The translations under genes and the position numbers were made by a program. 64,000 bases of DNA from Nemertoderma westbladi (Eukaryota; Animalia; Xenacoelomorpha): positions 1 to 64,000 of the forward strand of contig JAUCBJ010007299.1 in assembly GCA_032718475.1 (NCBI GenBank), written 5' to 3'. Shown in pieces: positions 1-32,917 of this stretch. The notes beneath the pieces are model-generated. The model was not told the DNA's origin and ran no database searches. It saw only the letters and a list, made by a program, of their open reading frames with translations. How positions within the stretch are numbered: position 1 is the first letter of the stretch; the number at the start of each line of letters is the position of its first letter.

Positions 1-3000
1 CTCGCTGGTATTCGACCTTCCTCCACTCCCGACGAAGTCGATGGTGGAGTCGTCCTATGATTTTTAATAGGACTGTAGGGGTATTTCCGTAATCAAGTTG
101 TCCAATTGATCTTAAGGTAGTGATAGCGTTCTTGATTTCGTCAGCTAGTTTTAGTAAGTCGACGGGTTTAGTGATAGCCCCTCCCTTACAGAGTTCTTCT
201 ATTACTGACCTGGCCATACTCACTGTACCTCCGTATATCGAAGTCAAACGATCGTACGCTAGTTCGAAAGCGTCTGGTACACCGACGAAAGTCTCCGCCA
301 AACGTTTAGGTTCTCCTGACAACGTTTGGAGCAGGTAATTGAACTTCTCCCGTGATGTAAAGGCGCACACGGCGATCTGGGATTCGATATAGTCTACGAA
401 GGTATGCCAGTGTTTTGAGCTACCGGAGAACTTCGGTGGTTGTTGTACCGGCAATCCCTGTCTGGCTGCGAATTTCGCTATCTCCTCGGCAACGTTCAGA
501 GTTTCGCGTCCTTGGTTGGTAGTCTGGTTGATGTTCTCCCTTCTTGGCGCTTTTCCCTGATACGATGTGGGGTTTGAAGGTACCGGTCTTTGTGGTCCCT
601 TCGGGTGTCTATTGTGTTCGAATTCGGAATTTCTCGAACTGTCGGTGTAACCTTCCTCCAGACGTTCCTCAATCCGGGCCAACTTGTTGACAATGTCGGC
701 GAACTGTTGCGCACCGATCGCGCCCGCTGGTGGTAACGCCTTCTGTGTCGGTGTATTCTGTGGAGGATTGTCTGCAAAGGAGTTGTCTGAACGCTCGCGT
801 TTATATTCATCGGCCGCCCCCGTTCTAAATACCTCGCGTATCGGGTAATCCGATTCGCTCGAAGTACTACTATCATCTGGATATGGTGGTCGACGTGCTC
901 GCGTTCGTTGCGTCGTACGAATTCTAACGGTTCGTTTCGGAACATCGTCCACTGATCTCCGTTGTTCGGTAGGCTCACAAGTCTTCCTCGAAGTCGTAGA
1001 TTGCGATGTAAACTGGTTGAACGGTCGCGTCTCCACTGTTCTCCGTTGTTCGGTAGGCTCACAAGTCTTCCTCGAAGTCGTAGATTGCGATGTAAATTGG
1101 TTGAACGGTCGCGTCTCCACTGTTCTCCGTTGTTCGGTAGGCTCACAAGTCTTCCTCGAAGTCGTAGATTGCGATGTAAACTGAACCGGTGGGCGAATGA
1201 CAGCATTTGAAACAACTGGCCTTGTAGGTCGAAACGTCATTGGGTAAGCGTAATGTGTAACGGGTTTAGGTGTCAAAGGTGGACTCACCTGTTTTGTCGT
1301 CAGTAGCGCAGGTCCGGTCAATAAACTACTACGATCTGTAATCGGTGGGTTACTTACCTTGACTCTCGGAATAGGCGACGACGTTGCTCTTGGTGGTATA
1401 AACTCGTTCGGAATAACAAACCTGTGTTCCGTCGCACCATGGATAGGAGAAATATCACTACTACCCGCAATCGAAACAGGTTCCTTAGTCGTAACCGGTG
1501 CAAACATATGAGTTACCTGTGGGAATCGTTGACACACGTCTTTTACTAATTGTCGTTCCCGTCCGGGTGCTCCTACGCTTCCTTCCTTCTTCCGTTCCTG
1601 AATTTGGCGATGTCTTACCTCTAACTGGTCCAAATCATGTCCGTCGCGAGATCTCATCGATCTATCGCGGGCTAGAAGATCCAGATTTTCCTTAGTTTCG
1701 GCTAATTCTCTCGCCCTCTTCTCAAGTTCGAAACGAAGTTTAACTTCCTTTTCTCGTTGTTCCGTTTGTTGTTGTTGCGCCTCGAACTCTGCTTGTCGTA
1801 TCGCTTGTTGGGCTTTTATTTGCCGTGTCTTCATCTCGACTCTGGCTTCCGAAACTACTCTTTGTCGCTCTAACTCTGCCGCAGCCGTTTGTCGCTCTAA
1901 CTCTGCCGCAGCCGTTTGTCGCTCTAACTCAGCCGCTGCAGCTGCCGCTGCCGTTTGTCGCTCTAACTCGGCCGCTGCCGCTGCCGTTTGTCGCTCTAAC
2001 TCGGCTGTTGCCGTTCGTTGCGCTAACTCGGCCGTTGCCGCTTGTTGGGCAATGTCCAACTCTAACCTTTCCATTTCGGCCGCTTCGAGTTCGGCTTGTT
2101 CCTGCAGATGAGAGATTCTCGCTACATTCGCAACACGTATTTTCTCTTCCTCTACTGCTGTTTGTATCATTAGAAGTTGAGCTTGTTCTTCTATCTCGTG
2201 TTGCTGTCTGTAGAACTGCTGCTGTTGTCGAGCAACTTCTGACGTGACTATACTTCCTTCGCAGATTTCGCTACGAATACTTACCAATGATTGATTTAGT
2301 ATTCCCGGTGCCGATTCGATTTGTGCGAATGAAGTTTCCCTCGTGTATTCCGGCACGGTTTCCAAATCGCCGACGTCTTCGCCGCACATGCGTAAGTGGT
2401 CCGTCAGATGTTTCAATTGTCCATCCAGTCGGTACAATTCCTGTTCTTCCTCGGGTTGTAATAATTCGTCCGAAACTGACTCACCTAACAACTGGTCCGC
2501 TTGTTCCTGTTGTATCTGTCTAATCGTCGACTTAAACTGAATCAGTTTCTCTCTAGTGATCATTAGTTTCTCGAGGATTCTAAGTTGAGTATCCATGTCC
2601 TGTCTCTGTCTAGCTAGATCTTGTAGGCCAACTAGATTATCTACGGACTTATATACTTTACTCTGTACTCTAACCTGGAGGGTGTAGAACTCGAATCGAG
2701 ACATCGGAGCGGTCAACCCGTCTAATATGCGTTGGCCTTCTCCAATACTCCTGGTTATATGCGCCATGTATCCACCGACGCTTCTAACCACACTTTCTGT
2801 GCTTCCTGCTGAACTTACCAATTCCGTTTCCCTATATCTAGGTTGCGGAACAGTTAGAAAGTCCTCGGTCCTGCCGTCGCCTCGTACTACGGCATCCGGT
2901 ACTCCCGTTGGATGTACTGGTGACGCACACGGTGTAGGTTCGGTAGGCTCGCGAGTCTTCCCCTGTGGTTCTTCCGCTGCTGACTTATCCGCGTCACATG

Positions 3001-3882: not shown

Positions 3883-5764
3883 TATCGGAAGAGACGGTAA
3901 CAATACCTGCAATATCCTACTGTAAAGTTTGTAAATCAAATCATAAATCCGACCTTCTCACCAAAACAGTAAACCCCAAGTAAGCGAATATATTGCAGTA
4001 TCGATCTCTTTTAACCGGTGAGGCAGAAAACAGTCTACGAGCAGACAAACTTCGATAAAACAAAATCCCGCGCAGCGAATCCTAAAATCAGGCTGACTCA
4101 CTGACGGACTAAGGGGCTCGTATACTTTGCCGCGGTGTGATTTATATGGTTGGGCAAAGAGACGCTAGCTAGGTACAGAGGCAGATATTTGGAGGTGTCT
4201 AACTAGCGAGCAAAGTGCAGTAAGGACGAAAGTTAATTTTATATATTTTGAGGTGTAAATAATTTCTAACGCGCGTGTGTTAATTCTGAACGGTCAAAAG
4301 CAGTTTTGCTCCTTCACATATATAATTACTGGGTACGGTGTGCATTTTACGAATATTCTAATTTGTAACTTGTAGGTCCAATACTCACGAATGATAAGGT
4401 TCCTTCCCCTCTTGCGTATTTCCAGGACTCAAATTCAGGCATAAGGTTAATACTACGCCCAGAATTCGGCAATTTTAGGTACCAGGTCCCTGATACTAAG
4501 AAGAGATGTGTTAGTTTACTACTGTAGGCGTACGGGTACTAATAGCTATCCTGGCTCCTATCTAGAATTTTAGTCACCCAGGTAGTCCGGGTAACTTCCT
4601 ATTAGGGCGTTGGCGGGACACGGTAGATGTTAGTATATCCCTGATAGCCTCAATTTATTTGCGCCTAGCGTAAACTGCCCTACCGCCTGAACGGTACAAT
4701 CCCAATTCAGGTGAAAACACAGCAACCCCCTAGCCTACAAGTTCTGATGTAACGGACACCGTTGTACGGCAAATAGTCGCACACACACCTGTACTTAGCA
4801 AGAGTTAAGCGTACAGTTTGCTGCACCCTAACCAATGTGTATGCCTTGTACCGGTGTGCCTACGTCCTATCTGCGTACTAGTATCTGCTCTCTCTCCCTC
4901 TCCCCCGTAGGAATATGAAGGTCTACTGCGGTTTTTCCCTGAATCAAGACAGTACAGTCCCTATGATGTAATTTTGGGCTCACAGCGTGTCACTACGTCT
5001 ACCTTTGATCTTTTGGTCTTACACTTAGGTAGCAAGGATCGAACGCTGTCTAACCTTTCAGGCGATGGGCGAATAACGCTAGATGGTATTGCGGGTTGTC
5101 TCTCGTCTACATTCCCGTGATGTTCCCGTTCATTGCTGTGGCCCGATCTCTAGCTGGCCATCCTGTCCCTGAGTTTGTTCACCGTAGTGAAACCATATTA
5201 AAACAGATAGAAAGGCTGAGAGATGTGACTAGTATTTCTGACTTTATTACAAAACATATAATAACTATTATACAATAAACAATGTAATCTGAAATAAGAC
5301 AGAAAGTGAATGATGGAAAATTGAATAACTAATGAACGAATCGCACCTTTATATACTAAATTTGTGCCGCAATCAATCGAGAAAATTCTCGATTGTTCTA
5401 TAGATTCTAACAAGGTTTTAAAGATAGCTATTGGTCCAGCTAATATATAACTTGCACGACATTGGTTACAATCAAATAACTACAGCCTTATTGGTACAGA
5501 CAAATGCAATTAATTTGTAGCGGTTAATTTAAATGAGTTGAAATTCTACACAAAAAATAATTCGCACTTACTAGGATTTGAACTCGATACCTACTATACT
5601 TATAATTTCCAACGCTCTACCAACTGAGCTACTGAACCACTTGACCGATAGATGCATAATAGATAGAACCAATACGAATGAGAACTCAAAGCAATCTTTA
5701 CAAAGTTAATTCGAATAAAATAAATTTTTGAAAATCCACGGCATTTAGGGAATATAATTCTATA
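3883..5764 (-). repeat. 5' LTR of element A (1882 bp, TATAGAA...CCGATA)
   Basis: Aligns end to end with the two 1881-bp LTRs of B. Confidence 0.92.
5552..5638 (-). ncRNA. tRNA-like Pol III cassette in the U3 of element A's LTR
   Basis: A box TAGCTCAGTTGG, D-arm GCTC/GAGC, B box GAGTTCAAATCC, followed by T6. Confidence 0.6.
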
Positions 5765-13334: not shown

Positions 13335-13339
13335 GCGTA

Positions 13340-15220
13340 TATAGAATTATATTCTCTAAATGCCGTGGATTTTCAAAATTTTATTTTATTCGAATTAACT
13401 TTGTAAAAGATTGCTTTGAATCCTCATTTGTATTTGTTATATCTATTGTACGCCTATCGGTCAAGTGGTTCAGTAGCTCAGTCGGTAGAGCGTTGGAAAT
13501 TATATGTGTAGTAGGTATTGAGTTCGAATCCTAGTAAGTGCGAATTATTTTTTGTGCAGAATTTCAACTCATTTAAATTAACCGCTACAAATTAATTGCA
13601 TTTGTCTGTACCAATGAGACTGTAGTTATTTGATTGTAACCAATGTCGTGCAAGTTATATATTAGCTGGACCAATAGCTATCTTTAAAACCCTGTTAGAA
13701 CCTATAGAACAATCGAGAATTTTCTCGATTGATTGCAGCACAAATTTGCTATATAAAGGTGCGATTTGTTCATTAGTTACTACTTCTCAGATTATCTTAT
13801 CAATATTCTGTCGTGCTTAGTTTATTTCAGATTACATTGTATTATAATTATATCTTCTGTAATAAAGTCAGAATTATCGCTAATCTGCCTTTTCTATCTG
13901 TTTTACCATGATTCACTACGGTGAACAAACCTAAGGGACAGGATGGCCAGCTAGAGATCGGGCCGCAGCAATGAACGGGAACATCGGGGGAATGTAGACC
14001 AGAGACAACCCGCAATACCATCTTGAGTTATTCGCCCATCGCCTAAAAGGTTAGACAGCGTTTGACGCCTTGCTACCCAAGTGTAAGACCGAAGATCATA
14101 AGGTAGAAGTAGTGACACGCTGTGAGCCTAAAATTACATCTTAGGGACTGTACTGTCTTGATTCAGGAAAAACCACAGTAGACCTTCATATTCCTACGGG
14201 TAGAGGGAAAGAGCAGGCAGATACTAGTACGCAGATAGGACGTAGGCACACTGGTACGAAGCATACAAATTGGTAGGGTGCAGCAAACTGTACGCCTAAC
14301 TCTTGCTAAGTACAGGTGTGTGTGCGACTATTTGTAGTACGACAGTGTCCATTGCATTAGAACTTGTAGGCTAGGGGGTTGCTGTGTTTTCACCTGAATT
14401 GGGATTGTACCGTTCAGGCGGTAGGGCAGTTTACAGCTAGGCGCAAATAAATTGAGGCTATTAGGGATACTAACATCTACCGTGTCCCCGCCAACGCCCT
14501 AATAGGAAGTTACCCGGACTACCTGGGTGACTAAAATTCTAGATAGGAGCCAGGATAGCTATTAGTAACTGTACGCCTACAGTAGTAAACTAACACATCT
14601 CTTCTTAGTATCAGGGACCTGGTACCTAAAATTGCCGAATTCTGGGCGTAGCATTAACCTTATGCCTGAATTTGAGTCCTGGAAATACGCAAGAGGGGAA
14701 GGAACCTTATCATTCGTGAGTATTGGACCTACAAGTTACAAAATTAGAATATTCGTAAAATGCACACCGTACCCAGTAATTATATATGTGAAGGAGCAAA
14801 ACTGTTTTTGACCGTTCAGAATTAACACACGCGCGTTAGAAATTATTTACACCTCAAAATATATAAAATTAACTTTTGTCCTTACTGTGTTTTGCCGCTA
14901 GTTAGACATTTCCAAATCTCTGCCTGTACCTAGCTAGCGTCTCTTTCGCCCAACCATATAAATCACACCGCGGCAAAGTATACGAGCCCCTTAGTCCGTC
15001 AGTGAGTCAGCCTGATTTTAGGATTCGCTGCGCGGGATTTTGTTTTATCGAAGTTTGTCTGCTCGTAGACTGTTTTCTGCCTCACCGGTTATAAGAGATC
15101 GATACTGCAATATATTCGCTTACTTAGAGTTTACTGTTTTGGTGAGAAGGTCGGATTTATGATTTGATTTACAAACTTTACAGTAAGATATTGCAGGTAT
15201 TGTTACCGTCTCTTCATATA
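13340..15220 (+). repeat. 5' LTR of element B
   Basis: Near-identical to 29265-31145. CCAAT boxes at about 13610-13675, TATATAAA at 13750-13757, AATAAA at 13861-13866. Confidence 0.96.
13467..13553 (+). ncRNA. tRNA-like Pol III cassette in the 5' LTR of B
   Basis: A box TAGCTCAGTCGG (13474-13485), D-arm GCTC/GAGC, B box GAGTTCGAATCC (13520-13531), T6 (13548-13553). Acceptor and anticodon stems do not pair. Confidence 0.6.
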
Positions 15221-15231
15221 GTAGGAATATG
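15221..15231 (+). promoter_or_regulatory. Non-tRNA primer-binding site of B (GTAGGAATATG)
   Basis: Abuts the LTR, has no TGG, and is the exact complement of LTR-internal CATATTCCTAC (14187-14197). Confidence 0.75.
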
Positions 15232-16020
15232 TTTTACTGAACTACGGTTCGGTAGGACTAAAGTTATTTGAAAATTTTGTATTTTGAGGTAAAAGTTTGT
15301 ATTTGATTAGCTAAGTGCTAATTTTTGAAATAAAATTTGGTTTGAACCGCGTGTAAAATATTTTGGAATTGAATACCGGTGTTTAAAAGGGTTTAAATAC
15401 CATATTGTACCGGTACAAAATTTTTCGTAAAAGTAAAACCTAACTCTTTTGTTTTTTCAGGATTCAGAACTCATTTCTAGACTGTAACGGGAGCAAGACC
15501 GTGTTTAGCAAGTTTGGGAGATAGATAACTCAACAACTTTGGTTGGGAAAATCGCGCTTCGTCCGCAACGTTAAAAACGGAAAGGTTCACGTCCGGTTTG
15601 TATCTGGGAATCTGTTTTTCTGGAGAATTATTGGAGTGGGTGAGTTCGAAAAGTTGCATAAATAAGTTAGGCATTACCGTATTAGTAAAAATTATTGTGG
15701 GTTCCACTGTCTCAAGTATTTATGCATTCCGTATGATTTCTTTGTTCATTGCTGAATTAGTCCGTATTATTGTATTTAATTTACCTTTTGATAACGCATA
15801 TCGTTATCCGATTTAAAATTGGCCGCTAGGCTAATTTTATTATATACTTATTCCGTGACATTTATTTGCTGTAAAATTGGCCGTTTAGGCTAATTTTATC
15901 CATCTGCTATAAAATCGGCCGGTAGGCTAATTTTATATGACTGTAATTAGTACCGTTTAGATATAAATACGGTAAACTCGATACTTTGACACTCACTTTA
16001 CTTGACTTACAACTACCGAA

Positions 16021-18300
16021 ATGAGTGACAAACAAGACTATACGAAGAACACACCTACCGACTATGACTCGTGTGACGCGGATAAGTCAGCAGCGGAAGA
16101 ACAACAGGGGAAGACTCGCGAGCCTACCGAACCTACACCGTGTGCGTCACCAGTACATCCAACGGGAGTACCGGATGCCGTAGTACGAGGCGACGGCAGG
16201 ACCGAGGACTTTCTAACTGTTCCGCAACCTAGATACAGGGAAACGGAGATGGTAAGTTCAGTAGGAAGCCAGGAGAGCGTAGTTAGAAGCGTCGGCGGTT
16301 ACATGGCGCATATTACCAGGAGTATTGGAGAAGGCCAACGCATATTAGACGAGTTAACCGCTCCGATGTCTCGGTTCGAGTTCTACACTCTACAGGTGAG
16401 AGTACAGAGTAAAGTATATAAGTCCGTAGATAACCTAATTGGTCTACAAGATCTAGCTAGACAGAGACAGGATATGGACACTCAGCTTAGAATCCTCGAG
16501 AAACTAATGATCACTAGAGAGAAACTGATTCAGTTTAAGTCGACGATTAGGCAGATACAACAGGAACAAGCGGACCAGTTGTTAGGTGAGTCAGTTTCGG
16601 ACGAATTATTGCAACCCGAGGAAGAACAGGAACTGTACAGGCTAGATGGACAATTGAAACACCTGACGGATCACTTACGCATGTGCGGCGAGGACGTCGG
16701 AGATTGGGAAACCGTGCCGGAGGCTACGAGGGAAACTTCACTCGCACAAATCGAACTGGCACCGGGAACACTAAATCAATCACTGGTGAGTATTCGCAGC
16801 GAAATTGGCGAGGTGAGTATGGCTACGTCAGAAATTGCTCGACAACAGCAGCTCTACAGACAACAACAGGAGATGGAGGAACAAACTGAACTGCTAATGG
16901 CACAAGCAGCAGTACAAGAAGAGAAACTACGTGTTGCGAATGTTGCAAGAATCTCTCATCTGCAAGAACAAGCCGAGTTGGAAGCAGCCGAGATGGAAAG
17001 ATTAGAGTTGGACATTGCACAACAGGCAGCGGCAGCGGCAGCGGCAGCGTCCGAGTTAGAGCGACAAAGGTTAGCTTCAGAAGCGAGAACCGAAATGAAA
17101 AAACGGCAAATAAAGGCTCAATCAGCTATACGACAAGCGGAGTTCGAGGCGCAACAACAACAGACGGAACAACGCGAGAAGGAAGTTAAACTTCATTTCG
17201 AACTCGGGAAGAAGGCGAGAGAATTAGCCAACGCGAAGGAAGATCTGGATCTACAAGCCCGCGATCGATCGATGAGATCTCGTGACGGACATGATTTGGA
17301 CCAGTTAGAGGTAAGGCACCGTCAAATTCAGGAACGAATGAAGGAAGGAAGTGTAGGGGCACCTGGGCGAGAAAGACAACTAGTAAAGGACTTATGTCAA
17401 AGATTCCCTCAAGTAACTCCTATGTTTGCACCGGTTACGACTAAGGAACCTGTTTCGATTGCTGGTAGTAGTAATATTTCTCCTATCCATGGTGCGACGG
17501 AACACAGGTTTGTTATTCCGGACAAGTTTACACCGCCAAGAGCAACGTCATCGCCTATTCCGAAAGTCAAGGTAAGTAACCCGCCGATTACAGATCGTAG
17601 TAGTTTATTAGTCGAACCTGTATTACTGACGACTAAACAGGTGAGTCCACCGTCGACACCTAAACCCGTTACACACTACGCTTACCCAATGACGTTTAGG
17701 CCTTCAAGGCCTTTAGATTCAAACGCTGTCACTCGACCACCGGTTCAGTTTACATCGCAATCTACGACTTCGAGGAAGACTTGTGAGCCTACCGAGCAAC
17801 GGAGACCAGTGGATACGCGACCGTTTAATCAGTTTACATCGCAATCTACGACTTCGAGGAAGACTTGTGAGCCTACCGAGCAACGGAGACCAGTGGATAC
17901 GCGACCGTTTAATCAGTTTACATCGCAATCTACGACTTCGAGGAAGACTTGTGAGCCTACCGAACAACGGAGACCAGTGGATACGCGACCGTTCAACCGG
18001 TTTACATCGCAATCTACGACTTCGAGGAAGACTTGTGAGCCTACCGAACAACGGAGATCAGTGGACGATGTTCCGAAACGAAACGTGAGAATTCGTACGA
18101 CGCAACGGACGCGAACACGTCGACCACCATATCCAGATGATAGTAGTACTTCGAGCGAATCGGATTACCCGAAACGCGAGGTATTTAGAACAGGGGCGGC
18201 CGATGAATACAAACGCGAGCATTCAGACAACTCCTTTGCAGACAATCCTCCACAGAATACACCAACACAGAAGGCGTTACAACCAACGGACGCAATCAGT
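16021..18300 (+). CDS. Gag-Pol of B, exon 1 (760 codons; long coiled-coil/low-complexity N-terminal extension)
   Basis: ORF 16021-18306; its last codon and TAA stop come from the insertion. Homologous to the uninterrupted ORF of A. Confidence 0.9.
17742..18066 (+). repeat. 84-bp (28-aa) coding tandem repeat in gag, about 3.8 copies (about 2.8 in A)
   Basis: FTSQSTTSRKTCEPTEQRRPVDTRPFNQ repeated. Confidence 0.95.
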
Positions 18301-19523
18301 ACCTAAAGAGGTGAGGTCTCTATAAGGGTGCTGATAGCAGGCGGCGGCGGACTCGTGAGGGTCTGGGGACACGTTAAAACCTGCGTCCGTAAGTGCAAGG
18401 GAGATACTTAAGGCCCTCGTGTCTAACGAACCATGAATTGTCATGGTGCCGTGGTACCGTCTAGTCGGCCTGTTGCCGTACTGCCAGTCCTGTACACAGT
18501 AGGGGTGGTGGCATGGTGTGATTTGTGGTTCATGTGGCGTGAACTATGTTTTGTATGTGGGCGATCAGTGGCAGTTTGCTTGGGGCTTGGATGGTTCCAT
18601 TGGCCATCAGCTGTTCCGTTTTTTTGATACTATATGTTATTGTCTCCATGTTCAGCTGATTGGTCTTTGGTGGCATTGGAATAAACTGTCGGGTCTTGAG
18701 CTTTCTGTTGCTGTGGGTACGTGAGTACACGTGATTGTATGTGTGGCCACTGCGAGTGGGTATGGGAACCCTTGCCAGTTGGACAAGACGCCGCTGGTAT
18801 TAGTAGGACCATACTTTACTGCGCCCCAGCATACTTTGTGCACACAAAGTTATTTTACCCTGTCGGTAAAATAAGGTACTCTCGATTTTGCCGTTTGTCG
18901 ATACAATTTTGTCCCCTCTGATTTTGTCTTTCTCGATTTTGACCCCGATTTTGTCTTTACCCGATTATGTCCTCTGTGTGTGCATGGTATGTGTCAGATT
19001 TTGTGTTTACCGTAGTGTACTTGATTTCGTGAACATCTGTTGAGTACACGTGTACAGGACGGGTAAGTGGTTACTTGTTCCTAGCTTTCGAGCTAGTCAG
19101 TATTGTTGAGGAACGGTGTCCCCTCAATACTGCCGGCGAGGCAGGTGAAAACGTGTCAAAATTCCATGTTGGGTAGCGCAAGCCCACATGGGACAAGACC
19201 GTCGGTTAGGCCCAAGGGCGACCTTGGTGCTCGATCGCTATCGACTGGTCCACCTGCCGGTTGACTCTTTGTTATACTTGGAGTTGGCTCAATGTACAGT
19301 CAGGCCACAGTAAGTTGACAGTAGCCGCCCATCTGGCTACACGTTCGACGAGCTGTGCTGGTGTGATCGGGGGACCGAAAACAGAACCCGGGAAGCATCA
19401 GGCCACCCTCCGGCCCGGTCTGATAATAACATCAGTCGGACTGGCCCCAGAGGTGGTGGAACCACGTCCGCCTCGTGGGTGCGCCTCGGAGTTATCGGAG
19501 AGGAGCCCAAAAGGACGAAAGTG
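18301..19523 (+). ncRNA. Group I self-splicing intron (1223 nt) in the gag of element B
   Basis: Follows exon T18300 and ends in G19523. P1 18292-18300/18330-18338 with U.G. P3 19140-47/19251-58. P4 19151-57/19197-202. P5 19162-68/19187-93. P6 19203-07/19233-37. P7 19241-47/19297-302. P8 19259-67/19281-89. J8/7 CAATGTA. Absent from A; excision is in frame. Confidence 0.88.
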
Positions 19524-22500
19524 ACACAACAGTTCGCCGACATCATGCGACCAGTTGTTAACAAGTTGGCTCAGATCGAGGAGCGTCCGGAGGAAGTTCA
19601 AACCGATAGTTCGAGGAACACTGAATTCGAACACAATAGACACCCGAAGGAACCACAAAGACCGGTACCTTCAAAACACCCATCGTATCAGGGAAAAGCG
19701 CCAAGAAGGGATATCAACTAGTGTACCAACCAAGGACGCGAAACTCTGAACGTTGCCGAGGAGATAGCGAAATTCGCAGCCAGACAGGGATTGCCGGTGC
19801 AACAACCACCGAAGTTTTCTGGTAGCTCAAAACACTGGCACACTTTCGTAGACTATATCGAATCTCAGATCGCCGTGTGCGCCTTTACATCACGGGAGAA
19901 GTTTAATTACCTGCTTCAAACGTTGTCAGGAGAACCTAAACGTTTGGCAGAGACCTTCGTTGGTGTACCGGACGCCTTCGAATTAGTGTACGATCGTTTA
20001 ACTTCGATATATGGAGGTACAGTCAGTATGGCCAGGTCAGTAATAGAGGAACTCTGTAAGGGAGGGGCTATCACTAAACCCGTCGACTTATTAAAACTGG
20101 CCGACGAGATAAAGAACGCTATCACTACTTTAAGATCCATTGGACAACTTGACTACGGGAATACCCCTACAGTCCTATTAAAGATCATAGGACGACTCCA
20201 CCATCGACTTCGTCGGGAGTGGAGAAAGATCGAATACCAGCGAGAAGAGCGGGGTGGATTCTTAAAACTAGAGGATGTGTACCTTTTGATATCCAGGGAA
20301 GCAGTTGTAGAAACTCGATCCAACTACACTGACCAGCACATCGTAGCAGAAGGGATCACCTTGCCATCCTCCAACCGACAAAAACCTCAGACAACATCCA
20401 CCAAGACGGCCACATACGCCACATCGACGGAAACCCGACAATTCTCGGACGGTAGTAGAGTATCTGCGCCCATTGGGACAAAACAGACGAGACAACAACT
20501 CAGTACCGACTTCAGCGGCTGCCAATACTGCGAGCATTTGGGCAAGCGGTATATCGGTCACAAGTTGAGAGGTTGTCGACAGTTTCGCGAGTTAAACTCG
20601 GAAGAACGACGGCTGCAGATACGGCCATTGGACTCTTGTTGGCGGTGTACGCGACACGGACACGTCCGTAAAGATTGCCCAAATACCGACACTTGTCCAT
20701 CCTGTGGACGCAACCACAACGGTCTGCTCCACACAGACAGCCACACACCGACAAAACGCTTCGCCAGGGAACACCCGGAAGCAGCAGCGAGATGTGATGC
20801 GGCCTACAGAAAACGAGAATCGAAAACGACTCCGACCTTCGTGACCCATATTGAGGATTGCTTCTCTGAACAACCCGGATCGTCGGACGAAGAGTCAGAA
20901 GACGACGACGTATATTCGGATGGAGATGAACAGCCATCGATCGCGCTTCTGACTACTGACCAACTGAAGGGATTCAGTGTAATTCCGATTAAGATTACTG
21001 GCACAAAGGGGAGTAAGAGAATCTACGCTATTCTAGATTCAGCCTCTTCTCACAGTTACGTGGATGAAAAGATAGCTGACGTCGTGACGGATCTCAGACA
21101 AGGTAAGCGCGTCAGTTATACCGTAAGTAGTATGCACGGACAGCGTGCAATACCAGTGACACGAGTCAAGTTAAACTTAGACTCTCTTCTTCCGAAATCG
21201 CAACACAGCGAGAGGGAGAGGTCTTTGTTACCCTTCAAGGATTTGACCTTTGCGGCCACCAAAGACTTTAGTAACTTACTAGGTCCGGTCCCAGAACAAT
21301 CCTTGAAGGACCGTAAGTATTTCAGACACCTTGGTGTACTCGAATGTCCTGTCAATTATAGATCGGTAGCCATGCTGATCGGGACAGACCAATTCAACCT
21401 ACACCAAGTGTGGGAAACCAGACCATCGGCAGTCGTAGCGGGAAACGCATACGCCTGTAGAACGCCGATAGTGTGGTATACTCGAGCGCCTGTGCGCACA
21501 CTAGACGTAAGTGACGAGGAAGACGATGTACAAAGTACATGTAGTTTATTAACTACAAATTCAATTCATTCCTTCTCACACGACGTGAACCATACTACAC
21601 TACAGTCGACAAAACGTGACAGACGTGTGACTAGTATGATAAGTCACAAGGAGCAGCTAATCCACCAGCGGAGTTTAGAACTTGGGGAGAAGACGAGTCA
21701 GCTAGAGATTCCATCGATGACAGATGATAACGCCGGAAGGCTTGCGAGTCTACCTACCCCAACGACATCAACAATGCACGTCGATATCGATGATGACGCG
21801 TTGAGAAATCATCAAATGGAACAAGCTGCACTGGACAAAGAATTAACGGAGAAGACTATCAGGTGGTTAGAACAAGATACAGCTGAACCTGGTAGCTATG
21901 AACCTTGTATGTCAGAACAGGAGAAACAATCTCTGAAGATCATGGAAGATACTATCCGCCAGACGGAGGACGGACATTATGAGGTAGGGATGTTATGGCG
22001 TAGCCAAAGTCCTAAACTCATAAATAACTACCCACTGGCTTTAAGACGTCTACACTCAATCCGACAGCGTCTATTAAAGGACGAGAAAGCCCATCTGCAG
22101 TACAACACTCAGATGGAGACATATTTGACCAAGGGATACGCTATCCGGATGACTAACCCAGAGATAGTGACTGACCAGACGTACTACTTGCCACATCACT
22201 ACGTGAGACACCCCGACAAACCAGACAAAGTACGTGTAGTCAATGACTGTGCGGCTCTGTTTGAGGGAATGTCCCTCAATAGCGAGTTGATGGATGGACC
22301 AAACATGAATAATTATCTTATGGGGGTGATTATGCGCTTCCGTCAGCGTCAAGTAGCTTTTACTTGTGACGTTGAAGCGATGTTTCACCAAGTGAGAGCG
22401 TTAGAGCGAGACAGAGACAGTTTGCGGTTCCTCTGGTACCTGGAAGGAGACTTAAGTCTACCACCGGCGACTTACCAAATGCAAGTTCGCGTTTTCGGTG

Positions 22501-25500
22501 CCAGGGACAGCCCAAACTGCACGATGTACGCCCTAAAACAAGCCGCTAGGGATCAGAAACACCTGTATGACCCAGAGATAATTAGGATTGTGGAGCGTGA
22601 CTTTTACGTTGACGACGGTTTACAGAGTTGCGACACAGTAGAACGTGCTACAACAGTAGCACATCAATTACGGGACTGCTTAGCGGGCGGAGGTTTTAAC
22701 CTCACCAAATTCGCCTCAAACAGTGCCGAATTAGTAGACTCATTCGGAACGACTGAGCGTGGAGGTGGTGACATAGACCTAGAGTTCGAACCACTACCGA
22801 CGACCAAGGTGTTGGGGCTCTTTTGGGACCCAAACACAGACAACTTTCGAGTGAAAGTGAGACTGGACAGTCAAGAAAACACACTGACAAAGAGATCATG
22901 CTTGTCAAAATTGAGCCGATTGTTCGATCCGTTAGGATTCATCAGTCCAGTAATACTGCAAGCCCGCATTTATATGCGCAGTATTTGGAAGGATGGACTG
23001 ACATGGGACGAGCCGATCTCATCAGACCAAGTGGACTTATGGAAGACCTGGGAGGCGGAATTATCTTCGCTAGAGGATTATTCCATACCCAGAGTTTACT
23101 TTCCATTACAAACAACATTCCCTGACAACTTGGAATTACACTGTTTTTCTGACGCCAGTGACAACGGTTTTGGTGTGGCAGCGTACTTGCGCAGACAAGT
23201 AGACTCAGAAGAATTCGACGTTTCGCTCATTACTTCTAAGGCAAAAACAATGCCTACTAAGTATATGACGACACCACGAGCTGAGCTACAAGCCGCAACA
23301 CTGTCAACCACCATCGTGAACCTCATACAGACAGAACTACAGTCAAGTTTACAGATATTTTATTGGACTGACGCGACGTTGGTTTTATTTTACATAAACA
23401 ACGACACACTTGAATTCAAGACATTCGTAGCTAACCGTCGCGCAGAAATTCTAGACCGTTCAATAAAAGAGGATTGGCGACATTGTCCCGGACCACAAAA
23501 CCCAGCTGATATTGCGTCGCGAGGAATGATGCCTGAGGAATTCTGTAAACCGGAAAACAAAGAATTTTGGCAACACGGACCCCAATTCTTGCAGAAATCG
23601 ACGCAAGATTGGCCACCGTTATACGACAACAAGTCTAACACTATCCCTAAGGACGCCGAAATCAAGAAACCAAAAAAGGGGAAGGCAAAGAAAAAGACGA
23701 CGGCGGCAAAACTCAAGAAAAAACCGAAGGCGAAATGGAAAGATATAACTTCAAAGGTCAAGAGAGGAAGACTTGCGAGCCTTTCTACACCAGACATATC
23801 GCCAGACGGTCAACCAGACACGTTACTAGACGGTCAACCGGACGTTTTGCCAGACATGTCACAAAATGTTCTACCAGACACTAGTAACACATTGACAAAT
23901 AGTAAAGCCGCAGTTTCCCTATTGGAGCGGCCTTCTATTGACAAACAACCAGATACGTTACCAGACGTATCGCCAGACACATTACTAGACAGTCGACTAG
24001 ACATTTTGTCAGAAACATCACAAAATGTTCTACCGGACATTAGTAATGTATCGACTAACAGTAAAGCCGCAGTTTCCCTATTGGAGCGGCCTTGTATTGA
24101 CAAACTACCAATTTTGACACACTTGAGCAACCATAAGCACGGTGAAACCTCATGTATTACAGATGTGGGTAGTACCTACGCTAATGTAAATACAGGTGTT
24201 ACTTTGCGCTCAAGAGACATACCGAACTTGCAACCTATGGTGAAACCTGGGATTAATGTCGGCAGAAAAATAAGTTTACCGAAACCCAGTGACCCCATAG
24301 AGTTCAAACCACCATTAACGATCGACTTACAAAGTACTGACAATCAAGGTAAGAAGACGAAGAAGGACAAATTACTTGTAGACCCGGACGGATCAACAGT
24401 CAACAAGGGAATACTTACCGGCGGACCCGTGGGCCCTTCTAGTAAATCAAAACCTTCCAAAATCTCTATTGACTTACCTGATGACGTCACAAATACTCAC
24501 GTAGATCATATTGTAAACCTAACAGATTCTTGGACAAACTCTTGCCGAAAATTAGCGTGGATTGTACGTTTTGTACAATACGTTAAAGGCAAACGCGACT
24601 TTACACGTCGACTTACATTGGCTGAGATTGACAGGTGTGAGATTAAATTAGTTCGCCATTACCAACTGCGATATTTCGCGCGCGAATTCACATCTATAAA
24701 TCAAGGTCAACCAATCAAGTCGTCACCAATACTGAGTTGGAGTCCGATTATTTATAATGGCTTAATTTGTCATAAATCTCGGCTTCAAAACATTGACTTC
24801 AACACAAACTTTAGATACCCAATAATAATACCGCAACATCACGAACTACAACGTGCAATGATACTGGACGCACATTTACATCTGAAACACGCTGGAAGAC
24901 ACCACTGTCTTTCCTACTTACGTACAAGATTTGTATTGATTAGACCTAGTAAAGCATTAAGTTCAGTGACACGTACGTGTATTATTTGTAAAAAGGTACA
25001 CTCTAGAATAGGTACCCAAGAAATGAGTGAACTTCCACAAGCACGACTTCAAGCATTCAGACCACCTTTTACAGAGACTGGAATTGATTGCTTTGGTCCT
25101 ATACATACGAAACGTGGACGTATACTAGTAAAACGCTGGGGACTGATTTTCACATGTATGTCCAGTAGGGCAGTTCATATTGAACGTGTGATGGATCTTT
25201 CCACCAACGCGTTTATACTAGCACTGCGGCGATTTATCGCTAGACGCGGACTAGTGAAATGCTTGTACTCAGACCAAGGGACAAACTTTGTTGGTGCTCG
25301 GAATGAGATTGCTAGAGCCTTTAAGAAATTAGATCATGATCAAATCTCGAACGAACTACAACCTCACAAGATTGTTTGGAAGTTTAATCCTCCAGATAGT
25401 CCTTGGAGAGGCGGAGTCTGGGAGAGACTGATTAGATCTATAAAGACAGCCATGGCAAAGGTCATTCCAGTAAACCACATATTGACAGACGACCAACTGA

Positions 25501-26009
25501 CAACATTGTTTGTTGAAATCGAGGCAATACTAAATACTAGACCAATAGTATTAGTACCCGATGACAAACAATCTCAGTTTGCTTTGACACCGGCACACCT
25601 GCTAATGCAGGCACCGACCACATTGACGCCGATTTCTATTCCAATAGAAAGCGATAGCTACGGTAGAAAAGCGTGGAAAATCACGCAACTACTGGCTAAC
25701 AAATTCTGGGAAATATGGCAAAACCATTATTTGCCCTCTATTTCTGCCAGAACAACTTGGTATAATAACACCCGCGCATTGAAGCCGGGAGATCACGTGC
25801 TATTAGCGGAAGTGAATCTAAAAAGACGCTTCTGGATAACAGGTGTAATTTTAGCCACACATCCATCTATGGATGGAGTGACAAGAACTGTGACGGTACG
25901 GACAATTGACGGTCGTACAGTAGACAGACCGACTCAACGTCTCGTACTTCTTGAAGAGACTCGTAACGAGTCTGGAGACTACAAATCTCCACCTAATACT
26001 AGTAAATAA
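19524..26009 (+). CDS. Gag-Pol of B, exon 2: gag core, three zinc knuckles, protease, RT, RNase H, integrase (one in-frame TAG at 19719-19721)
   Basis: Gag PPKFSG; knuckles CWRCTRHGHVRKDC and CPSCGRNHNGLLH; protease ILDSASSHSY; RT YLPHH and YVDD; RNase H FSDAS, PRAELQAA, NPADIASRG; integrase GIDCFGP, SDQGTNF, GGVWERLI. Confidence 0.95.
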
Positions 26010-26669
26010 TTAGGAGTTTACAAATAGATTTCCACGTACCTGTACACCGTAGTAAGGACAGCGGTAGAATTCCATTGTCTTTATATGTGAACATTGAGGG
26101 TGGTACCCTTATGTGTCACATAGGAGCGGGATTTGTAGGTATAAGAAATGGAATTCTACTTGGAACTCACAATATTGAGACATTTTCGAAATTTTAGACA
26201 ATCCATTTGGATTTGAAAAATTTTTAAAATTTTCTCCAGTGAATAGATTTCAGGGTACTGTCGGGTGGAACTTAAAATTAGAGAAACAAGAGAGGAAGAC
26301 TTGCGAGCCTTTCTTAAAATTTTAATTAAATTTTACACGGTCTTGTTTCAATAAGTTACGTCAAAATAGACTCCCCTATATTTATTACTAATTCTTGACT
26401 GCTTATTTTCTGATAATAGTTTGGGATCAAAAAGTGAGTATTTTAGACTCACAGCCAGTTTAGCCCAAAATTCGTTTTTATTTCGGCAAAAAATTTTAGA
26501 TAAGAAGCAGCGTGTCATTAAAGAAACCCTAGATCTTAGGCTATGGGTAGGAGGTTAGAGCGTTGTCGAGCCCAAAGGGCAGACGAAACTCTCACGTCTC
26601 CTCACAACTAACTACAAACTCTGTTGTATTCCCTCTAGTAGTAATGATTATGTAACTACACCTCTAATT

Positions 26670-28372
26670 ATGGAGAAGGAGATACAAGGAGAGCCGAGAT
26701 GGGGATATGATATCCAAGAGGAGGCAGCAGCGCCATTCGAAAGATTTGGAGCCAAGGACTACACTATATTTGGTATAAAGGAATTATCAGAAAGTACAGC
26801 GAAGCTCGCAAAGACAGTAATGCCTTTACTCGAGCAGGATTTAGTATATTTCGAGACGTGTATCTTTGCTGTGCAGGATCTCTTATCGAAAGACCATCTA
26901 TGTTTACATTGTTACCCTATGAAGGAGAACGTATCGTGGAGATTACGGAAGAATCACGGCAGACGCGCGCGCCTATCGGTCACCTTGGTGATGATTTCGA
27001 AGTAACTACTACGATCGCCGACGATCCTTTAGAGGAACTTCTTGAGATAGAAAGGAACCTCCCGAAGAAATCTCAGACGGAGATTCGACAACTTGAAGCA
27101 ACAGATGCTATAGTTTGTATACAACCTTCAGAAACCTACCAACCCATAGACCCAGATGATTACGATTATAGTGTGGGAGGAAGCGCTCGACCGATTGGAG
27201 ATCTTATATACGAACAAGTGTGGTACCCTGCCAATACGATGTGTAGTAAATGTGGCGTCGCTGGACATCATATGACAAAGTGCAGTGGAAAGCACATTAC
27301 TACGACTCAGCTAATCTGTGGATGGTGTGGGGATCAAGGGTCTCATACCTTTTATACTTGCTGGAGATTTATGGCTCAATGTACTTATTGCAATATAAAA
27401 GGACATCGAGCATCTGAATGCCAACTAAGAGACATACCTTATGAACACGAATCTGTAAAACTCGTGAGGAAGTTATTTGATGAGTGGGAAGATTTAGCCG
27501 ACGAACATGTATCAGCACAAAGAAGACGGTTTCCGATGAGAGCGCATCTCGGATTTTGGGCGGTAAATCCTCAAACGATGATGTCGGAAGGATATATCTC
27601 CGCTATGCCCCAATATGACGAACTTATCGAGGTAGTCGATATTTTGCCCCACGACAGTGGATTCCGAGTGGTGCGCGAGTATCTACTACAGATTCACCCG
27701 GATAACAAAAACACGTGGAATTTTCAGAAAGTCGTTAACCGCATTACGTATGGTGAATTCGATCGTTTCCGAACTGAAAAGCGGAATAAAGGAGCTTGGT
27801 TAACCGTCGCATGGGCGTACCGAGCCGCGTTTTACCATAAACGTATACGAGCGAGCGTATTCGAGGAAGAGGAGGTCCTAGAGGCGACAAATATACCAGC
27901 CACTCCGGTTGCGCCGTCTGCACGTCACCCTCGGGAGGACGGACAGGGTAGGATCATACGGGTCCAGAAAGTGGGCCAACAATTAAAGAAAATTATTAAT
28001 GTAGAAGAACGCAAGGGAGTTGAGCCGACCATTCGAGTTACTCGGGATACGGTATCGCTTCCAAGAGAACCAGTAGGAGGATCGGGACATACACCAGCTG
28101 ATCAACAGGGGGCGCAAGCTACTCTTGGGTCTGCGTCGTCCGCCTTTCGCGCGTTCCCAGACGTTCTACCAACTGTAGTGACAACTGATCGGTCACGAGG
28201 AATCGGTCGAGGTTTTGGGATGCCAAATAGACGAATTTGCGAGGAAATAGTCGCACCGTCTCTCAACGTCCAAACGAAACCAGTGACTCGCCCCACGAGT
28301 CCCATATCGCGAGCAAAGTCACCTGTGCGCAGTTTTCGAGGACGCGGCAGGGCTCGATCAACTAAGCGATAA
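26670..28372 (+). CDS. Accessory ORF downstream of integrase with three CCHC zinc knuckles (two overlapping frames, probably one frameshifted ORF)
   Basis: CSKCGVAGHHMTKC, CGWCGDQGSHTFYTC, CTYCNIKGHRASEC; Arg-rich C-terminus; no evident TM or signal segment. Confidence 0.7.
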
Positions 28373-29264
28373 AAGGGAGGGCAAGGGTGGACGGAAGACT
28401 CGTGAGCCTTTCTTGTGAATTTGTGATTTATTTGAATTTATATTTATATTTGTGTTTATTCCGAACTTAAGCAATTTGTATTGTTCCGAATTTATGAAAT
28501 TTAGAAAGTTTATATTTAGAAGGAACTTATATTTGAAAGATTTATGTTTCATATTTGAGATGCAAAGGAGTTTATATTATTCTAAACTTATGCAGTTTAT
28601 ATTTATATTTAGTAAAGATTTATATTTAGTAAGAATTTACATTTTATATTTGTGATTATTCCGAACTTATGCAATTTATATTGTTCCGAATATTATGCAA
28701 TTTACATTTCATAGGCAGTATTTACAGTGAAACAGAAAGTAAGAGTAGATGGAAGACTCGTGGGCCTTTCTTATAGTTTTATTTGTAAAGTGTTATATTT
28801 TGTATTTAGAAAGTATTATAGTCAGAAAATTTTGTGCTTAGAAAGACTCATATTTGTAATTATTCCAAACTTATGCAATCTACATTTAGGTACGAAAGTA
28901 TTTGTAATTACTTGAATTTATGCAATATTTGAGATGCAATAGTAGATGGAAGACTCGCGAGCCTTTCTTATTGTTTTCATTTATTTGTATTTGTAATTGT
29001 TTGAATTTATGCAATATTGAGATGCAATAGATTTATATTGGTGAATTTAATTTAGATTTATATTGTACTTACTTAGTAAAGCCTTAAATACGTAAAGTTT
29101 GAATTTGTAATTATTTTTGTATCGAATCATTACGTAGAAAGGAAGTATTATTTGAAATTTAATTTGTAAATATGTAAGTACGCCCTAAGTGTTCTATAGT
29201 TTGATTGATTATTGGTGAAAACCGTATATTTTATGCACGATAATATCCTGTTTTCATGGAGCGG

Positions 29265-31145
29265 TATAGAATTATATTCTCTAAATGCCGTGGATTTTCA
29301 AAATTTTATTTTATTCGAATTAACTTTGTAAAAGATTGCTTTGAATCCTCATTTGTATTTGTTATATCTATTGTACGCCTATCGGTCAAGTGGTTCAGTA
29401 GCTCAGTCGGTAGAGCGTTGGAAATTATATGTGTAGTAGGTATTGAGTTCGAATCCTAGTAAGTGCGAATTATTTTTTGTGCAGAATTTCAACTCATTTA
29501 AATTAACCGCTACAAATTAATTGCATTTGTCTGTACCAATGAGACTGTAGTTATTTGATTGTAACCAATGTCGTGCAAGTTATATATTAGCTGGACCAAT
29601 AGCTATCTTTAAAACCCTGTTAGAACCTATAGAACAATCGAGAATTTTCTCGATTGATTGCAGCACAAATTTGCTATATAAAGGTGCGATTTGTTCATTA
29701 GTTACTACTTCTCAGATTATCTTATCAATATTCTGTCGTGCTTAGTTTATTTCAGATTACATTGTATTATAATTATATCTTCTGTAATAAAGTCAGAATT
29801 ATCGCTAATCTGCCTTTTCTATCTGTTTTACCATGATTCACTACGGTGAACAAACCTAAGGGACAGGATGGCCAGCTAGAGATCGGGCCGCAGCAATGAA
29901 CGGGAACATCGGGGGAATGTAGACCAGAGACAACCCGCAATACCATCTTGAGTTATTCGCCCATCGCCTAAAAGGTTAGACAGCGTTTGACGCCTTGCTA
30001 CCCAAGTGTAAGACCAAAGATCATAAGGTAGAAGTAGTGACACGCTGTGAGCCTAAAATTACATCTTAGGGACTGTACTGTCTTGATTCAGGAAAAACCA
30101 CAGTAGACCTTCATATTCCTACGGGTAGAGGGAAAGAGCAGGCAGATACTAGTACGCAGATAGGACGTAGGCACACCGGTACGAAGCATACAAATTGGTA
30201 GGGTGCAGCAAACTGTACGCCTAACTCTTGCTAAGTACAGGTGTGTGTGCGACTATTTGTAGTACGACAGTGTCCATTGCATTAGAACTTGTAGGCTAGG
30301 GGGTTGCTGTGTTTTCACCTGAATTGGGATTGTACCGTTCAGGCGGTAGGGCAGTTTACAGCTAGGCGCAAATAAATTGAGGCTATTAGGGATACTAACA
30401 TCTACCGTGTCCCCGCCAACGCCCTAATAGGAAGTTACCCGGACTACCTGGGTGACTAAAATTCTAGATAGGAGCCAGGATAGCTATTAGTAACTGTACG
30501 CCTACAGTAGTAAACTAACACATCTCTTCTTAGTATCAGGGACCTGGTACCTAAAATTGCCGAATTCTGGGCGTAGCATTAACCTTATGCCTGAATTTGA
30601 GTCCTGGAAATACGCAAGAGGGGAAGGAACCTTATCATTCGTGAGTATTGGACCTACAAGTTACAAAATTAGAATATTCGTAAAATGCACACCGTACCCA
30701 GTAATTATATATGTGAAGGAGCAAAACTGTTTTTGACCGTTCAGAATTAACACACGCGCGTTAGAAATTATTTACACCTCAAAATATATAAAATTAACTT
30801 TTGTCCTTACTGTGTTTTGCCGCTAGTTAGACATCTCCAAATCTCTGCCTGTACCTAGCTAGCGTCTCTTTCGCCCAACCATATAAATCACACCGCGGCA
30901 AAGTATACGAGCCCCTTAGTCCGTCAGTGAGTCAGCCTGATTTTAGGATTCGCTGCGCGGGATTTTGTTTTATCGAAGTTTGTCTGCTCGTAGACTGTTT
31001 TCTGCCTCACCGGTTATAAGAGATCGATACTGCAATATATTCGCTTACTTAGAGTTTACTGTTTTGGTGAGAAGGTCGGATTTATGATTTGATTTACAAA
31101 CTTTACAGTAAGATATTGCAGGTATTGTTACCGTCTCTTCGAATA
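29265..31145 (+). repeat. 3' LTR of element B (includes a tRNA-like cassette at 29392-29478)
   Basis: Direct repeat of 13340-15220; at least 3 internal substitutions plus a 2-nt difference near the end. Confidence 0.96.
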
Positions 31146-32917
31146 GCGTATCAAGCTATCAACAAACGCTTGAAAGTAGAGTATATAGCTCCCTGATACC
31201 AAGACCATCTTCTATCAACTCCGTCATATCTGCTATATATGAGTTTATTAATATTATAATGAGTTTATATTTAGGCTAGCGAGCGTCGCTGCCTACCCCC
31301 ATCAGCCCCTGGACAGTGCGAGATCCTCAGCGCCGATGTGTCGTAGCCGCTGTACTTTCGCCAACGACGTAGCCGCACAACGACAACGACAACCGGCACA
31401 AGTCACTCGACTGTCCGTCCCAAAGGCTTAGATACACCTCAGGTTCTTACTGGAGAGTTAGGGTTACTTTCACAATTGCGACTCGCTACTGTAAACACAC
31501 CTTAGTAGTAACATTCGCCTATAAACTCACAAATACCACACACACAACTTGTCACAAATTACACACACTCGGGCCATTTGTCCGTTAGTCAATGCCTTCC
31601 AGAATGTCACTGTATTATTATGTATCCTTGGATACTAGCAGTGCGCTATTTATTCCCTATGCTATTCAATGGGACAAGCTTTCTATTGTTCTTTTAACTC
31701 AATTCTAATTCTAGCGTGGTTGTTGCTATGGTGACATTATGCAAAGCTAGCGGTAGAATTAGGGTAATTCCAATGCATACAGATCTGGGATGTTATTTAA
31801 TAGTAATTCTTTAATGATCAATGTTCTGTTTTATACATGACTTTATGAATTTTATCGGCTATTGACTATGTTTGGGAGACTTTCGCACACTCATACGCAT
31901 GATAAGATAAATCTCCGCTCCCGTGATCTATTAATTAATGGAATTTTGGGAATGTTATAAATTGCGTAAAAATGGCAATTTATTAAATTCATTAAAAGGC
32001 ATGAATTTAAATTATTCCCTGAAATTTTATTATTTAATAATTAAATGGACATATTTTGATTCTAGAATATGTCTGGGGACACAAGATCCTTAATTCTATG
32101 ACAATTGTCTTTTTAAGAATATCGGTAAATGCTACGATATCTTAATTGACTAGAATTGTTGAAGGATCTGAATTTTACAGATTTTGATTTATTAGATTTG
32201 CAAATATTAAATAATTAATATTTGAGATGGGCACCAATTTATTCCAGAACTTGTCTGGGGACGTTAACCACTGATTCTAAAATTTGTCTTTCAAGTATAT
32301 CGGTGGGTGCCGCGATATCTTAATCGACTAGAATTACAGATGGTCAAAGGGTTTAACAGATTTATTTTGCGTTATACGCTACTGTTAAAGGGACATCACG
32401 CTACTATATGTATTATTTAATATACGGTATGAGAGCAATATCGCACGAAGCAATGTCAGTGTGAAGAGGCAAGTCGTTTCCAAGGTCTACCCAGAGCTTG
32501 GTTTAGCCGAGACACGAGGATCTGAACTTTGCATTCCTAATACTCTGCCTACCAATAATACTTGAATATAGTAGTGGCTTTATTGTACTTTAATAAGTAC
32601 GGACATTTCATCTTACTGTAGTTACGTATTTGTAATGTAATACGGACAGTAATGAAAGAGGAAAAGAATTATTTCTTGCCGTCGCATTAAATATAATATA
32701 TACGTAATTAAGTAATAAACGCGAATATATATTGCACTAATCTACTAAATAATCGCTAAAATAACATTCTACTGAATAAAATTAAAGAAAACGATTATAA
32801 TAAAATTACATAATAATACATACAGAAATATAAAAATAATAAAATAATATAAAATAATAGAGTCACACACCCACTCCATATGTTGTTACGTTATGGAGTC
32901 CCTAGATGTTTGAAGGA

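Follow-up and report, generated by a model that had tools for sequence, protein, structure and literature searches.

A probable endonuclease-free group I intron in the gag region of a BEL/Pao retrotransposon of Nemertoderma westbladi, and its relatives in viruses and retroelements

The stretch of DNA analysed here, referred to as the window, consists of the first 64,000 nucleotides (nt) of contig JAUCBJ010007299.1, from assembly GCA_032718475.1 of the xenacoelomorph Nemertoderma westbladi. Its forward strand carries a BEL/Pao long terminal repeat (LTR) retrotransposon of 17.8 kb, element B (13340-31145), whose gag region contains 1223 bases that are extra relative to a related copy, A. This insert (18301..19523, +) is, with little room for doubt, a group I intron. 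Element B is bounded by a 5' LTR (13340..15220, +; 1881 bp) and a 3' LTR (29265..31145, +), and is flanked by a 5-bp target duplication (13335-13339 upstream and 31146-31150 downstream). The termini of the LTRs are TAT...ATA, not TG...CA. As a reading made earlier from the sequence only had stated, the copy is young: its two LTRs differ at 5 of 1881 bases (99.7% identity), and intron-bearing RNA was therefore probably reverse-transcribed recently. The assignment to BEL/Pao is based on the presence, in a single frame, of a DUF1759 gag, Peptidase_A17, integrase and DUF5641, together with the LTRs and the target duplication; the long open reading frame (ORF) is about 40-44% identical to BEL/Pao polyproteins of corals, echinoderms and nemerteans. 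According to the available text of PMC3118150, BEL/Pao elements are metazoan only and usually measure 4.2-10 kb, with LTRs of 0.2-1.2 kb; B, with LTRs of 1.9 kb, is larger than this range.

Copy A (1-5764, -), truncated by the edge of the window, shares 90-95% identity with B and lacks the insert; no stop interrupts its frame between the start codon and that edge. The empty site is found at 704..721 (-), with the joint between 713 and 712. In B, exon 1 (16021..18300, +) comprises 760 codons of the N-terminal gag region and ends on a codon boundary. The intron follows U18300 and ends with the terminal G19523, and exon 2 (19524..26009, +) continues in phase with exon 1, with 65 codons, a stop at 19719-19721 and then 2095 codons. 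Exon 2 encodes DUF1759, zinc knuckles, protease, reverse transcriptase (RT), Peptidase_A17/RNase H, integrase and DUF5641. If the RNA is not spliced, the frame of exon 1 adds one codon and ends at TAA 18304-18306. The resulting product of 761 amino acids (aa), without Pfam matches, was correctly described from the sequence as devoid of gag core and pol: DUF1759, Peptidase_A17, integrase and DUF5641 are all encoded downstream of the insert. The same description assigned to the spliced RNA of B a full polyprotein of roughly 2920 codons, and this has to be withdrawn for B itself, since the 2921 codons of the spliced frame include the in-frame stop 19719-19721 (codon 826).

This stop is absent from copy A, where the frame is open. 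Its frequency was evaluated in four DNA runs of the animal (at most three samples), analysed as Logan contigs, where presence is shown, while summed depth does not measure copy number. Contig depth without the stop is 6892/7846, 10405/11618, 16975/19456 and 265/265; the stop is found in roughly a tenth of the depth in three runs and not at all in the fourth. It may mark an amplified non-autonomous sub-lineage, or be a site of readthrough.

The arrangement of the frames bears on the proposal of a domesticated intron, used by the element as a switch for Gag-Pol or for expression. The unspliced RNA gives a defined 761-aa product, and splicing would gate everything downstream. Yet the capsid and nucleocapsid regions are also encoded downstream, hence no Gag-only product is generated; moreover, open intron-free copies are abundant, and relatives of the intron, described below, are found at unrelated positions (RT, RNase H, integrase, capsid and polymerase genes). 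The proposal is accordingly to be regarded as very improbable. As for the coding capacity of the intron, the longest ORF wholly within it, or ending at its edge, is 104 codons long. No match to homing endonuclease families (LAGLIDADG, GIY-YIG, HNH, His-Cys) was found in the 14 frames scanned, out of the 24 intron frames of at least 45 codons, and no TnpA/TnpB-type ORF was found in the intron 3' part.

The predicted anatomy of the insert begins with P1 (18292..18338, +), where the end of the 5' exon (18292-18300) pairs with the guide 18330-18338. P1 features 8 pairs, with U18300.G18330 at the 5' splice site; the guide base G18330 sits 8 nt ahead of a CAGG motif, and homologues use the identical register. 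The P2 hairpin (18347..18485, +) has a GNRA-type loop and a conserved 5' block, common to viral and retroelement homologues with about 70-78% identity. A U/G-rich peripheral insertion of about 550 nt (18487..19060, +), in which no Pfam-matching ORF was found, is closed by a perfect 11-bp stem (18487-18497/19050-19060). The catalytic core (19140..19302, +) contains P3, P4, P5, P6, P7 and P8 in canonical order, with the P3/P7 pseudoknot. P3 (19140-47/19251-58) is followed by J3/4; P4 (19151-57, with a bulge at 19154, /19197-202) and P5 (19162-69/19186-93) are joined by J4/5 and J5/4, which form an A-rich loop; P6 (19203-05/19235-37) leads to J6/7. P7 (19241-47, with a bulge at 19242, /19297-302) contains the predicted guanosine site, the pair G19243-C19301 beside the bulged C19242, which is invariant in the four runs; P8 (19259-67/19281-89) and J8/7 (19290-96) complete the core. 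The P9 region and a terminal domain (19303..19523, +) extend to the terminal G19523, and both the domain and the ending in G are common to 10 out of 11 homologues compared. All of the 52 modelled pairs are standard. Since the homologues fix the register, two other readings were discarded, one taking the intron 3' end as hammerhead-like and one placing P3 at 18338-18345.

The empty site of copy A, as predicted, can still pair with the guide of B at the cost of one extra G.U: the duplex is evaluated at -7.1 kcal/mol, compared to -7.8 kcal/mol for B's own exon. Further places matching the guide, with a U.G and five Watson-Crick pairs, are found at 17833, 17917 and 18062, in or just after 84-bp gag repeats; none of them is in phase with the true 5' splice site, and they may act as cryptic ones.

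A group I core descriptor, written after the sequence had been inspected, has a single match in the window on either strand, which is the insert; 11 of 119,263 dinucleotide shuffles of the insert also match. Evidence from homologues is independent of this descriptor, which was written on B's own sequence. Homologues were searched by a motif of 20 bases from J6/7-P7 and J8/7-P7. The search produced 28 viral loci, of which one (L019) is a chance match and the other 27 are also alike over the remainder of the intron; at least 120 metagenome loci, out of an estimated 400; and two matches in prokaryote genomes, one due to chance (L150) and the other a true homologue (L149), located on a 1.3-kb contig of an assembled bin and possibly foreign DNA. 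No match was found in phage records.

The core could be parsed in 103 of 149 sequences, 66 of which are distinct, and each P3 position is paired in 63-66 of these 66 cores. In an alignment of 33 cores, 98.8% of the cells are paired, compared to 85.6% after shuffling, and none of 500 shuffles scores as high on any measure. Fifteen pairs change on both sides: 7 out of 8 in P3, all 4 in P5 and 4 out of 6 in P8. P4, P6 and P7 show no two-sided changes, and are supported by their order and pairing. A model built from the 33-row alignment recognizes held-out retroelement loci with scores of 52-143 bits, and misses the chance loci. The intron may resemble those of subgroup ID.

Viral members of the family are located in or beside genes for major capsid protein, DNA polymerase B, D5-like primase and Rpb1 of nucleocytoplasmic large DNA viruses (NCLDV; loci L001-L028, L030, L071 and L083). 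At L008/L010/L018, the final codons of a single NCLDV major capsid gene hold two family introns in tandem, spaced by 555 bases and with a few exon bases between them.

In metagenomes, 80 loci with flanking sequences were surveyed, and 150 of their 175 ORFs were scanned. Ten loci, not all independent, have retroelement domains beside or around the intron, always in the sense orientation: Gypsy-type pol (L076, L082, L095, L038), integrase (L053, L056), non-LTR-type RT (L041, L070), Copia RT (L034) and an env-like F protein (L097). The insertion sites vary, and are found between protease and RT motifs (L076), in RNase H, in integrase, or before pol; in L076 one phase is open for 382 codons before the intron and 340 after it. 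No second BEL/Pao host was found when BEL/Pao proteins were compared by tblastn with 148 intron loci, and two distant gag relatives present in viral contigs have no intron core. At one more locus, L055, a family member on the minus strand, with its end about 330 bases from the beginning of the contig, immediately precedes the opening codons of an ORF resembling histone H3 (Pfam Histone, E 2e-34). The intron 5' end is off the contig, and the intron may lie within a host or viral histone gene.

In 38 out of the 42 loci listed (for example L043, L047, L058 and L107), the intron is found inside a dispersed, non-coding repeat, which appears to be similar to a short interspersed nuclear element (SINE). 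This SINE-like family is decaying, and is found in host-associated metagenome contigs, where many copies are cut at a near-identical 5' point within the intron. A filled junction, with a U.G-containing P1, is present in L058, while the same site is empty in four flanks. In a tree of 59 rows and 236 columns, from which L070 and L034 were skipped, the introns of the SINE-like repeat group with three Gypsy/RT-like ones at 97/70, below the starred level.

The correspondence between guide and own 5' exon was evaluated in 49 rows with a parsable 5' end, corresponding to 30 distinct sites. A U.G followed by at least five Watson-Crick pairs is found at 16 of the 30, window included, and a C.G replaces the U.G at four more; by simple arithmetic, such a match is expected by chance in about 4% of loci. 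Splicing would have no purpose in a non-coding retroposed RNA, which likewise provides no long DNA target; entry at the RNA level would therefore be the simplest reading. These observations bear on the earlier suggestion that the intron moves by reverse splicing, with the help of the RT of its host. Real but circumstantial support was obtained, from the lack of an endonuclease gene, from guide-matched relatives at many unrelated sites of RT-dependent elements and from the precise insertion into the SINE-like repeat. Overall, entry via reverse splicing and RT is the probable route.

Movement at the DNA level, assisted by a homing endonuclease acting in trans, for instance a viral one (collaborative homing), would be an alternative. 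A candidate free-standing endonuclease, a DUF7487/zinc-finger ORF, closely follows the intron-bearing capsid gene in three viral relatives (L002:3279-4586, L008:2214-2819 and L012:1419-2774), and two distant mitochondrial relatives, L061 and L074, carry LAGLIDADG ORFs. DUF7487, however, is at most a putative nuclease and no such ORF was found in the window intron, while the sites in retroelements and SINE-like repeats share a guide match of 5-7 bases and the sense orientation, with no long target. Movement of this type is thus quite unlikely.

Intron and empty site coexist in the DNA of the animal. The exact intron-free joint, 18300>19524, is present in all four runs (depth 1232, 7549, 2902 and 131), and the intron is covered in every bin in all of them, with depth at the guide of 2275, 4387, 7959 and 67. 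A single, splicing-dead copy, as left by a one-off insertion, had been indicated as the finding that would speak against a mobile intron. What is found, in all four runs, is hundreds of variant intron contigs, which exclude a single copy, and a near-invariant core. The core (19140-19302) contains seven variant sites. Four of them form two compensatory pairs (P = 0.0016 by position alone), 19143 with 19255, a P3 pair changing from A-U to G-C, and 19212 with 19227, a P6b pair changing from C-G to U-A; the others are one change from A-U to G.U, one internal-loop base and one P5 mismatch, with a one-base insertion. No variants are present in P6, P7, J6/7, J7/3 or J8/7; indels are mostly in loops, with deletions at the P8 loop and the P4 bulge. 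The intron is neither single-copy nor a decayed relic.

A once-active intron that no longer splices, carried as a passive passenger by non-autonomous copies and mobilized in trans by the intron-free ones, would be compatible with the second stop of B, whose presence in roughly a tenth of the depth of three runs suggests mobilization in trans, and with a long-range helix in the lowest-energy fold of B, described below. The invariance of P6, P7, J6/7, J7/3 and J8/7 in the four runs, the two compensatory pairs and the confinement of most indels to loops stand against it, and the relatives borne by SINE-like repeats display what decay looks like; the passenger hypothesis is therefore improbable. 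A dead intron would, in addition, be retained perfectly; that the core is conserved therefore implies that activity is selected for.

Guide positions 18331, 18332 and 18335 vary at a high share, and the variant at 18332 fits the exon of copy A better than that of B (-9.3 vs -3.1 kcal/mol). In run X1, 22 variant places are found in 476 bases of the intron 3' part, and 202 in the whole 2-kb stretch (2001 bases). A few contigs pass from the intron 3' end into unlike sequence, and in run X4 intron depth is about 5-10 times that of the flanks: both are weak hints of further intron sites. These data may also be read as the outcome of re-homing, where splicing is efficient, loss is frequent and the excised intron returns by reverse splicing to empty element RNA that is yet to be reverse-transcribed; compared with the explanation favoured below, only the weight assigned to re-entry is different. 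Empty sites remain pairable and the guide varies among copies, as re-homing would have it. The low variation of the intron 3' part would follow from a recent spread, the hints of other sites agree with it, and selection on the core would find its reason, since a splicing-dead intron would persist perfectly. On the other hand, purifying selection also predicts lower variation, summed contig depth is no measure of copy number, and reverse splicing is, in the available parts of PMC10964413 and PMC3679873, less efficient than homing, its full path being unproven. Re-homing as the main force is thus considered unlikely, less so than the other alternatives.

The explanation favoured, to which we give a probability of about 0.6, combines entry by reverse splicing, partial splicing and copying of unspliced RNA by the RT of the element. 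The intron, which likely self-splices from the element RNA, would, once excised, reverse-splice into retroelement RNAs offering a guide match of 5-7 bases, and the RT and integrase of the element would fix it in DNA. Splicing would be partial: unspliced RNA would be packaged, copied and integrated, generating filled copies such as B, while spliced RNA would be the source of the polyprotein and, when copied, of exact empty copies. Retention through unspliced RNA is somewhat favoured as the main way of persistence, slightly less firmly than the proposed mode of entry. The guide would set the target, and an altered guide would direct the intron to new sites, in RNAs of other retroelements. Selection on the core could result either from the need of filled copies for their own protein, or from activity driving re-entry. 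Splicing in the animal, reverse splicing, the identity of the packaged RNA and the supply of proteins, in cis or in trans, are inferred here.

A number of observations weigh against this reading, or against the identification of the intron on which it is based. No match to the Rfam group I model (RF00028, Intron_gpI) is found in the window, nor in 20 viral loci, 19 of them with homologues, nor in record G001: the model misses the whole intron family. The lowest-energy fold of B pairs 18368-18384 with 19141-19157, the 5' strand of P3 and P4, so that the core is not formed. According to this modelling, the competing helix could make B splice slowly; base 18369 differs in most of the contig depth, and the difference would weaken the helix. 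P4 carries a bulge. The invariance of P7, J6/7 and J8/7 among homologues carries no weight, as these segments were preset by the search pattern. The window intron is unplaced in the tree, and no donor or direction of transfer is accordingly claimed. Ten of the 30 parsed sites either have neither U.G nor C.G or are mis-parsed, including the Gypsy loci L076 (G-C) and L082 (A.G). In the runs, the two halves of the variable P3 pair (19143/19255) are not joined on one contig, and the short contigs give no single-molecule linkage of guide and exon variants. Finally, because of its downstream stop, B cannot be self-sufficient unless readthrough occurs.

The intron may be compared with several known systems. 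Nuclear group I introns of ribosomal DNA (rDNA), of types IC1 and IE, such as Tetrahymena Tth.L1925 and Didymium Dir.S956-1, share with it the P1 guide-exon pairing, the P3-P9 core, the G-C pair in P7 and the terminal G; many of them also lack an endonuclease, and reverse splicing has been proposed for their spread. They are confined, in the available text of the same source (PMC3679873), to rRNA genes of microbial eukaryotes, while the B intron is located in a protein-coding retrotransposon gene of an animal chromosome, with RT and integrase at hand, and its core does not match RF00028. NCLDV introns are homologous to the B intron in the 5' block, core and P9 region, with about 70% identity in the conserved blocks; they also interrupt protein-coding genes, and those inspected have no internal ORF. 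B differs in its host, an LTR element replicating through RNA, in the 550-nt peripheral insertion and in a longer terminal domain.

The mitochondrial introns L061 and L074 score 84-95 bits with the family model and share P4, P6 and P7 with the B intron, but they are organellar, AT-rich and LAGLIDADG-bearing, and form a long separate branch of the tree; the letters of their J8/7-P7 may resemble those of subgroup ID. IStrons, group I introns fused to IS605/IS607 genes, similarly tie a self-splicing intron to the life cycle of a transposon (available parts of PMC3984707 and PMC10690162). As far as the former source describes them, they have a transposase of their own and move as DNA in bacteria, while the B intron is a passenger inside the element, with no coding found. 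Introns also survive reverse transcription in Penelope-like elements, as the intron of B probably does; those, as described in the available text of PMC8557442, are spliceosomal and reside in elements of non-LTR type, in contrast to the ribozyme in an LTR element described here.

Some other features of the locus are reported for completeness. Downstream of exon 2, B contains an extra ORF (26711..28372, +) of 553 codons, counted between stops, which weakly matches a CCHC zinc knuckle. B is nested inside another young BEL/Pao-like element, C (10823-40712, -), whose LTRs differ at 5 of about 1190 bases and which features a 5-bp target duplication and a DUF1759 ORF at 32918-37144; no second group I core was found within the 64-kb window, element C included. 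A TBCCD1 host gene at 59449-61155 is uninterrupted, its best named matches being bilaterian animals, with 39-44% identity; like the metazoan range of BEL/Pao elements, these matches point to the nuclear genome of an invertebrate. Tandem arrays with open frames, made of 69-bp and 21-bp units, are located at 46410-47375 and from 61264 to about 63600.

Taken together, the data indicate, at the level of sequence, a genuine, endonuclease-free group I intron in a high-copy LTR retrotransposon of an animal, belonging to a family missed by Rfam. Nuclear group I introns are described as restricted to rDNA in the available parts of PMC3679873 and PMC9548176, and as lacking in animals other than basal lineages and five sharks in those of PMC10964413. 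Exceptions to the rDNA-only rule are already on record, as Polinton-like viruses that have integrated into protist genomes carry group I introns (PMC12220804, available text). In the literature searched, subscription papers and supplements being outside its scope, no paper describing a group I intron in an LTR retrotransposon or in an animal nuclear retroelement was found; in their available parts, PMC9587614, PMC11296320 and PMC10748475 deal with endonucleases only. That the intron described here interrupts a protein-coding gene of a retrotransposon, and does so at high copy number and within a chromosome of an invertebrate, contrasts with the rDNA-only view of the reviews. Since Rfam does not detect the family, introns of this type may lie behind the broken gag/pol frames of many annotated elements.

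The path leading from reverse splicing, through reverse transcription, to integration is described as missing experimental proof in the available text of PMC3679873 and PMC3984707. The mobility proposed here is plausible, and now has comparative support; as the LTR element supplies RT and integrase for the interrupted RNA, and filled and empty copies coexist, the route is testable. In a wider reading, to which we would assign an even chance, the intron belongs to an overlooked, widespread family of protein-free group I ribozymes, parasitizing reverse-transcribing elements. They would enter the RNAs of BEL/Pao, Gypsy, Copia, long interspersed nuclear elements (LINE) and SINE, be retargeted by a few guide bases, be fixed in nuclear chromosomes by the RT and integrase of the host element, and be exchanged between the genomes of animals and giant DNA viruses. 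If true, this would represent a natural and complete RNA-to-DNA mobility path for group I introns, operating at high copy number in animal nuclei.

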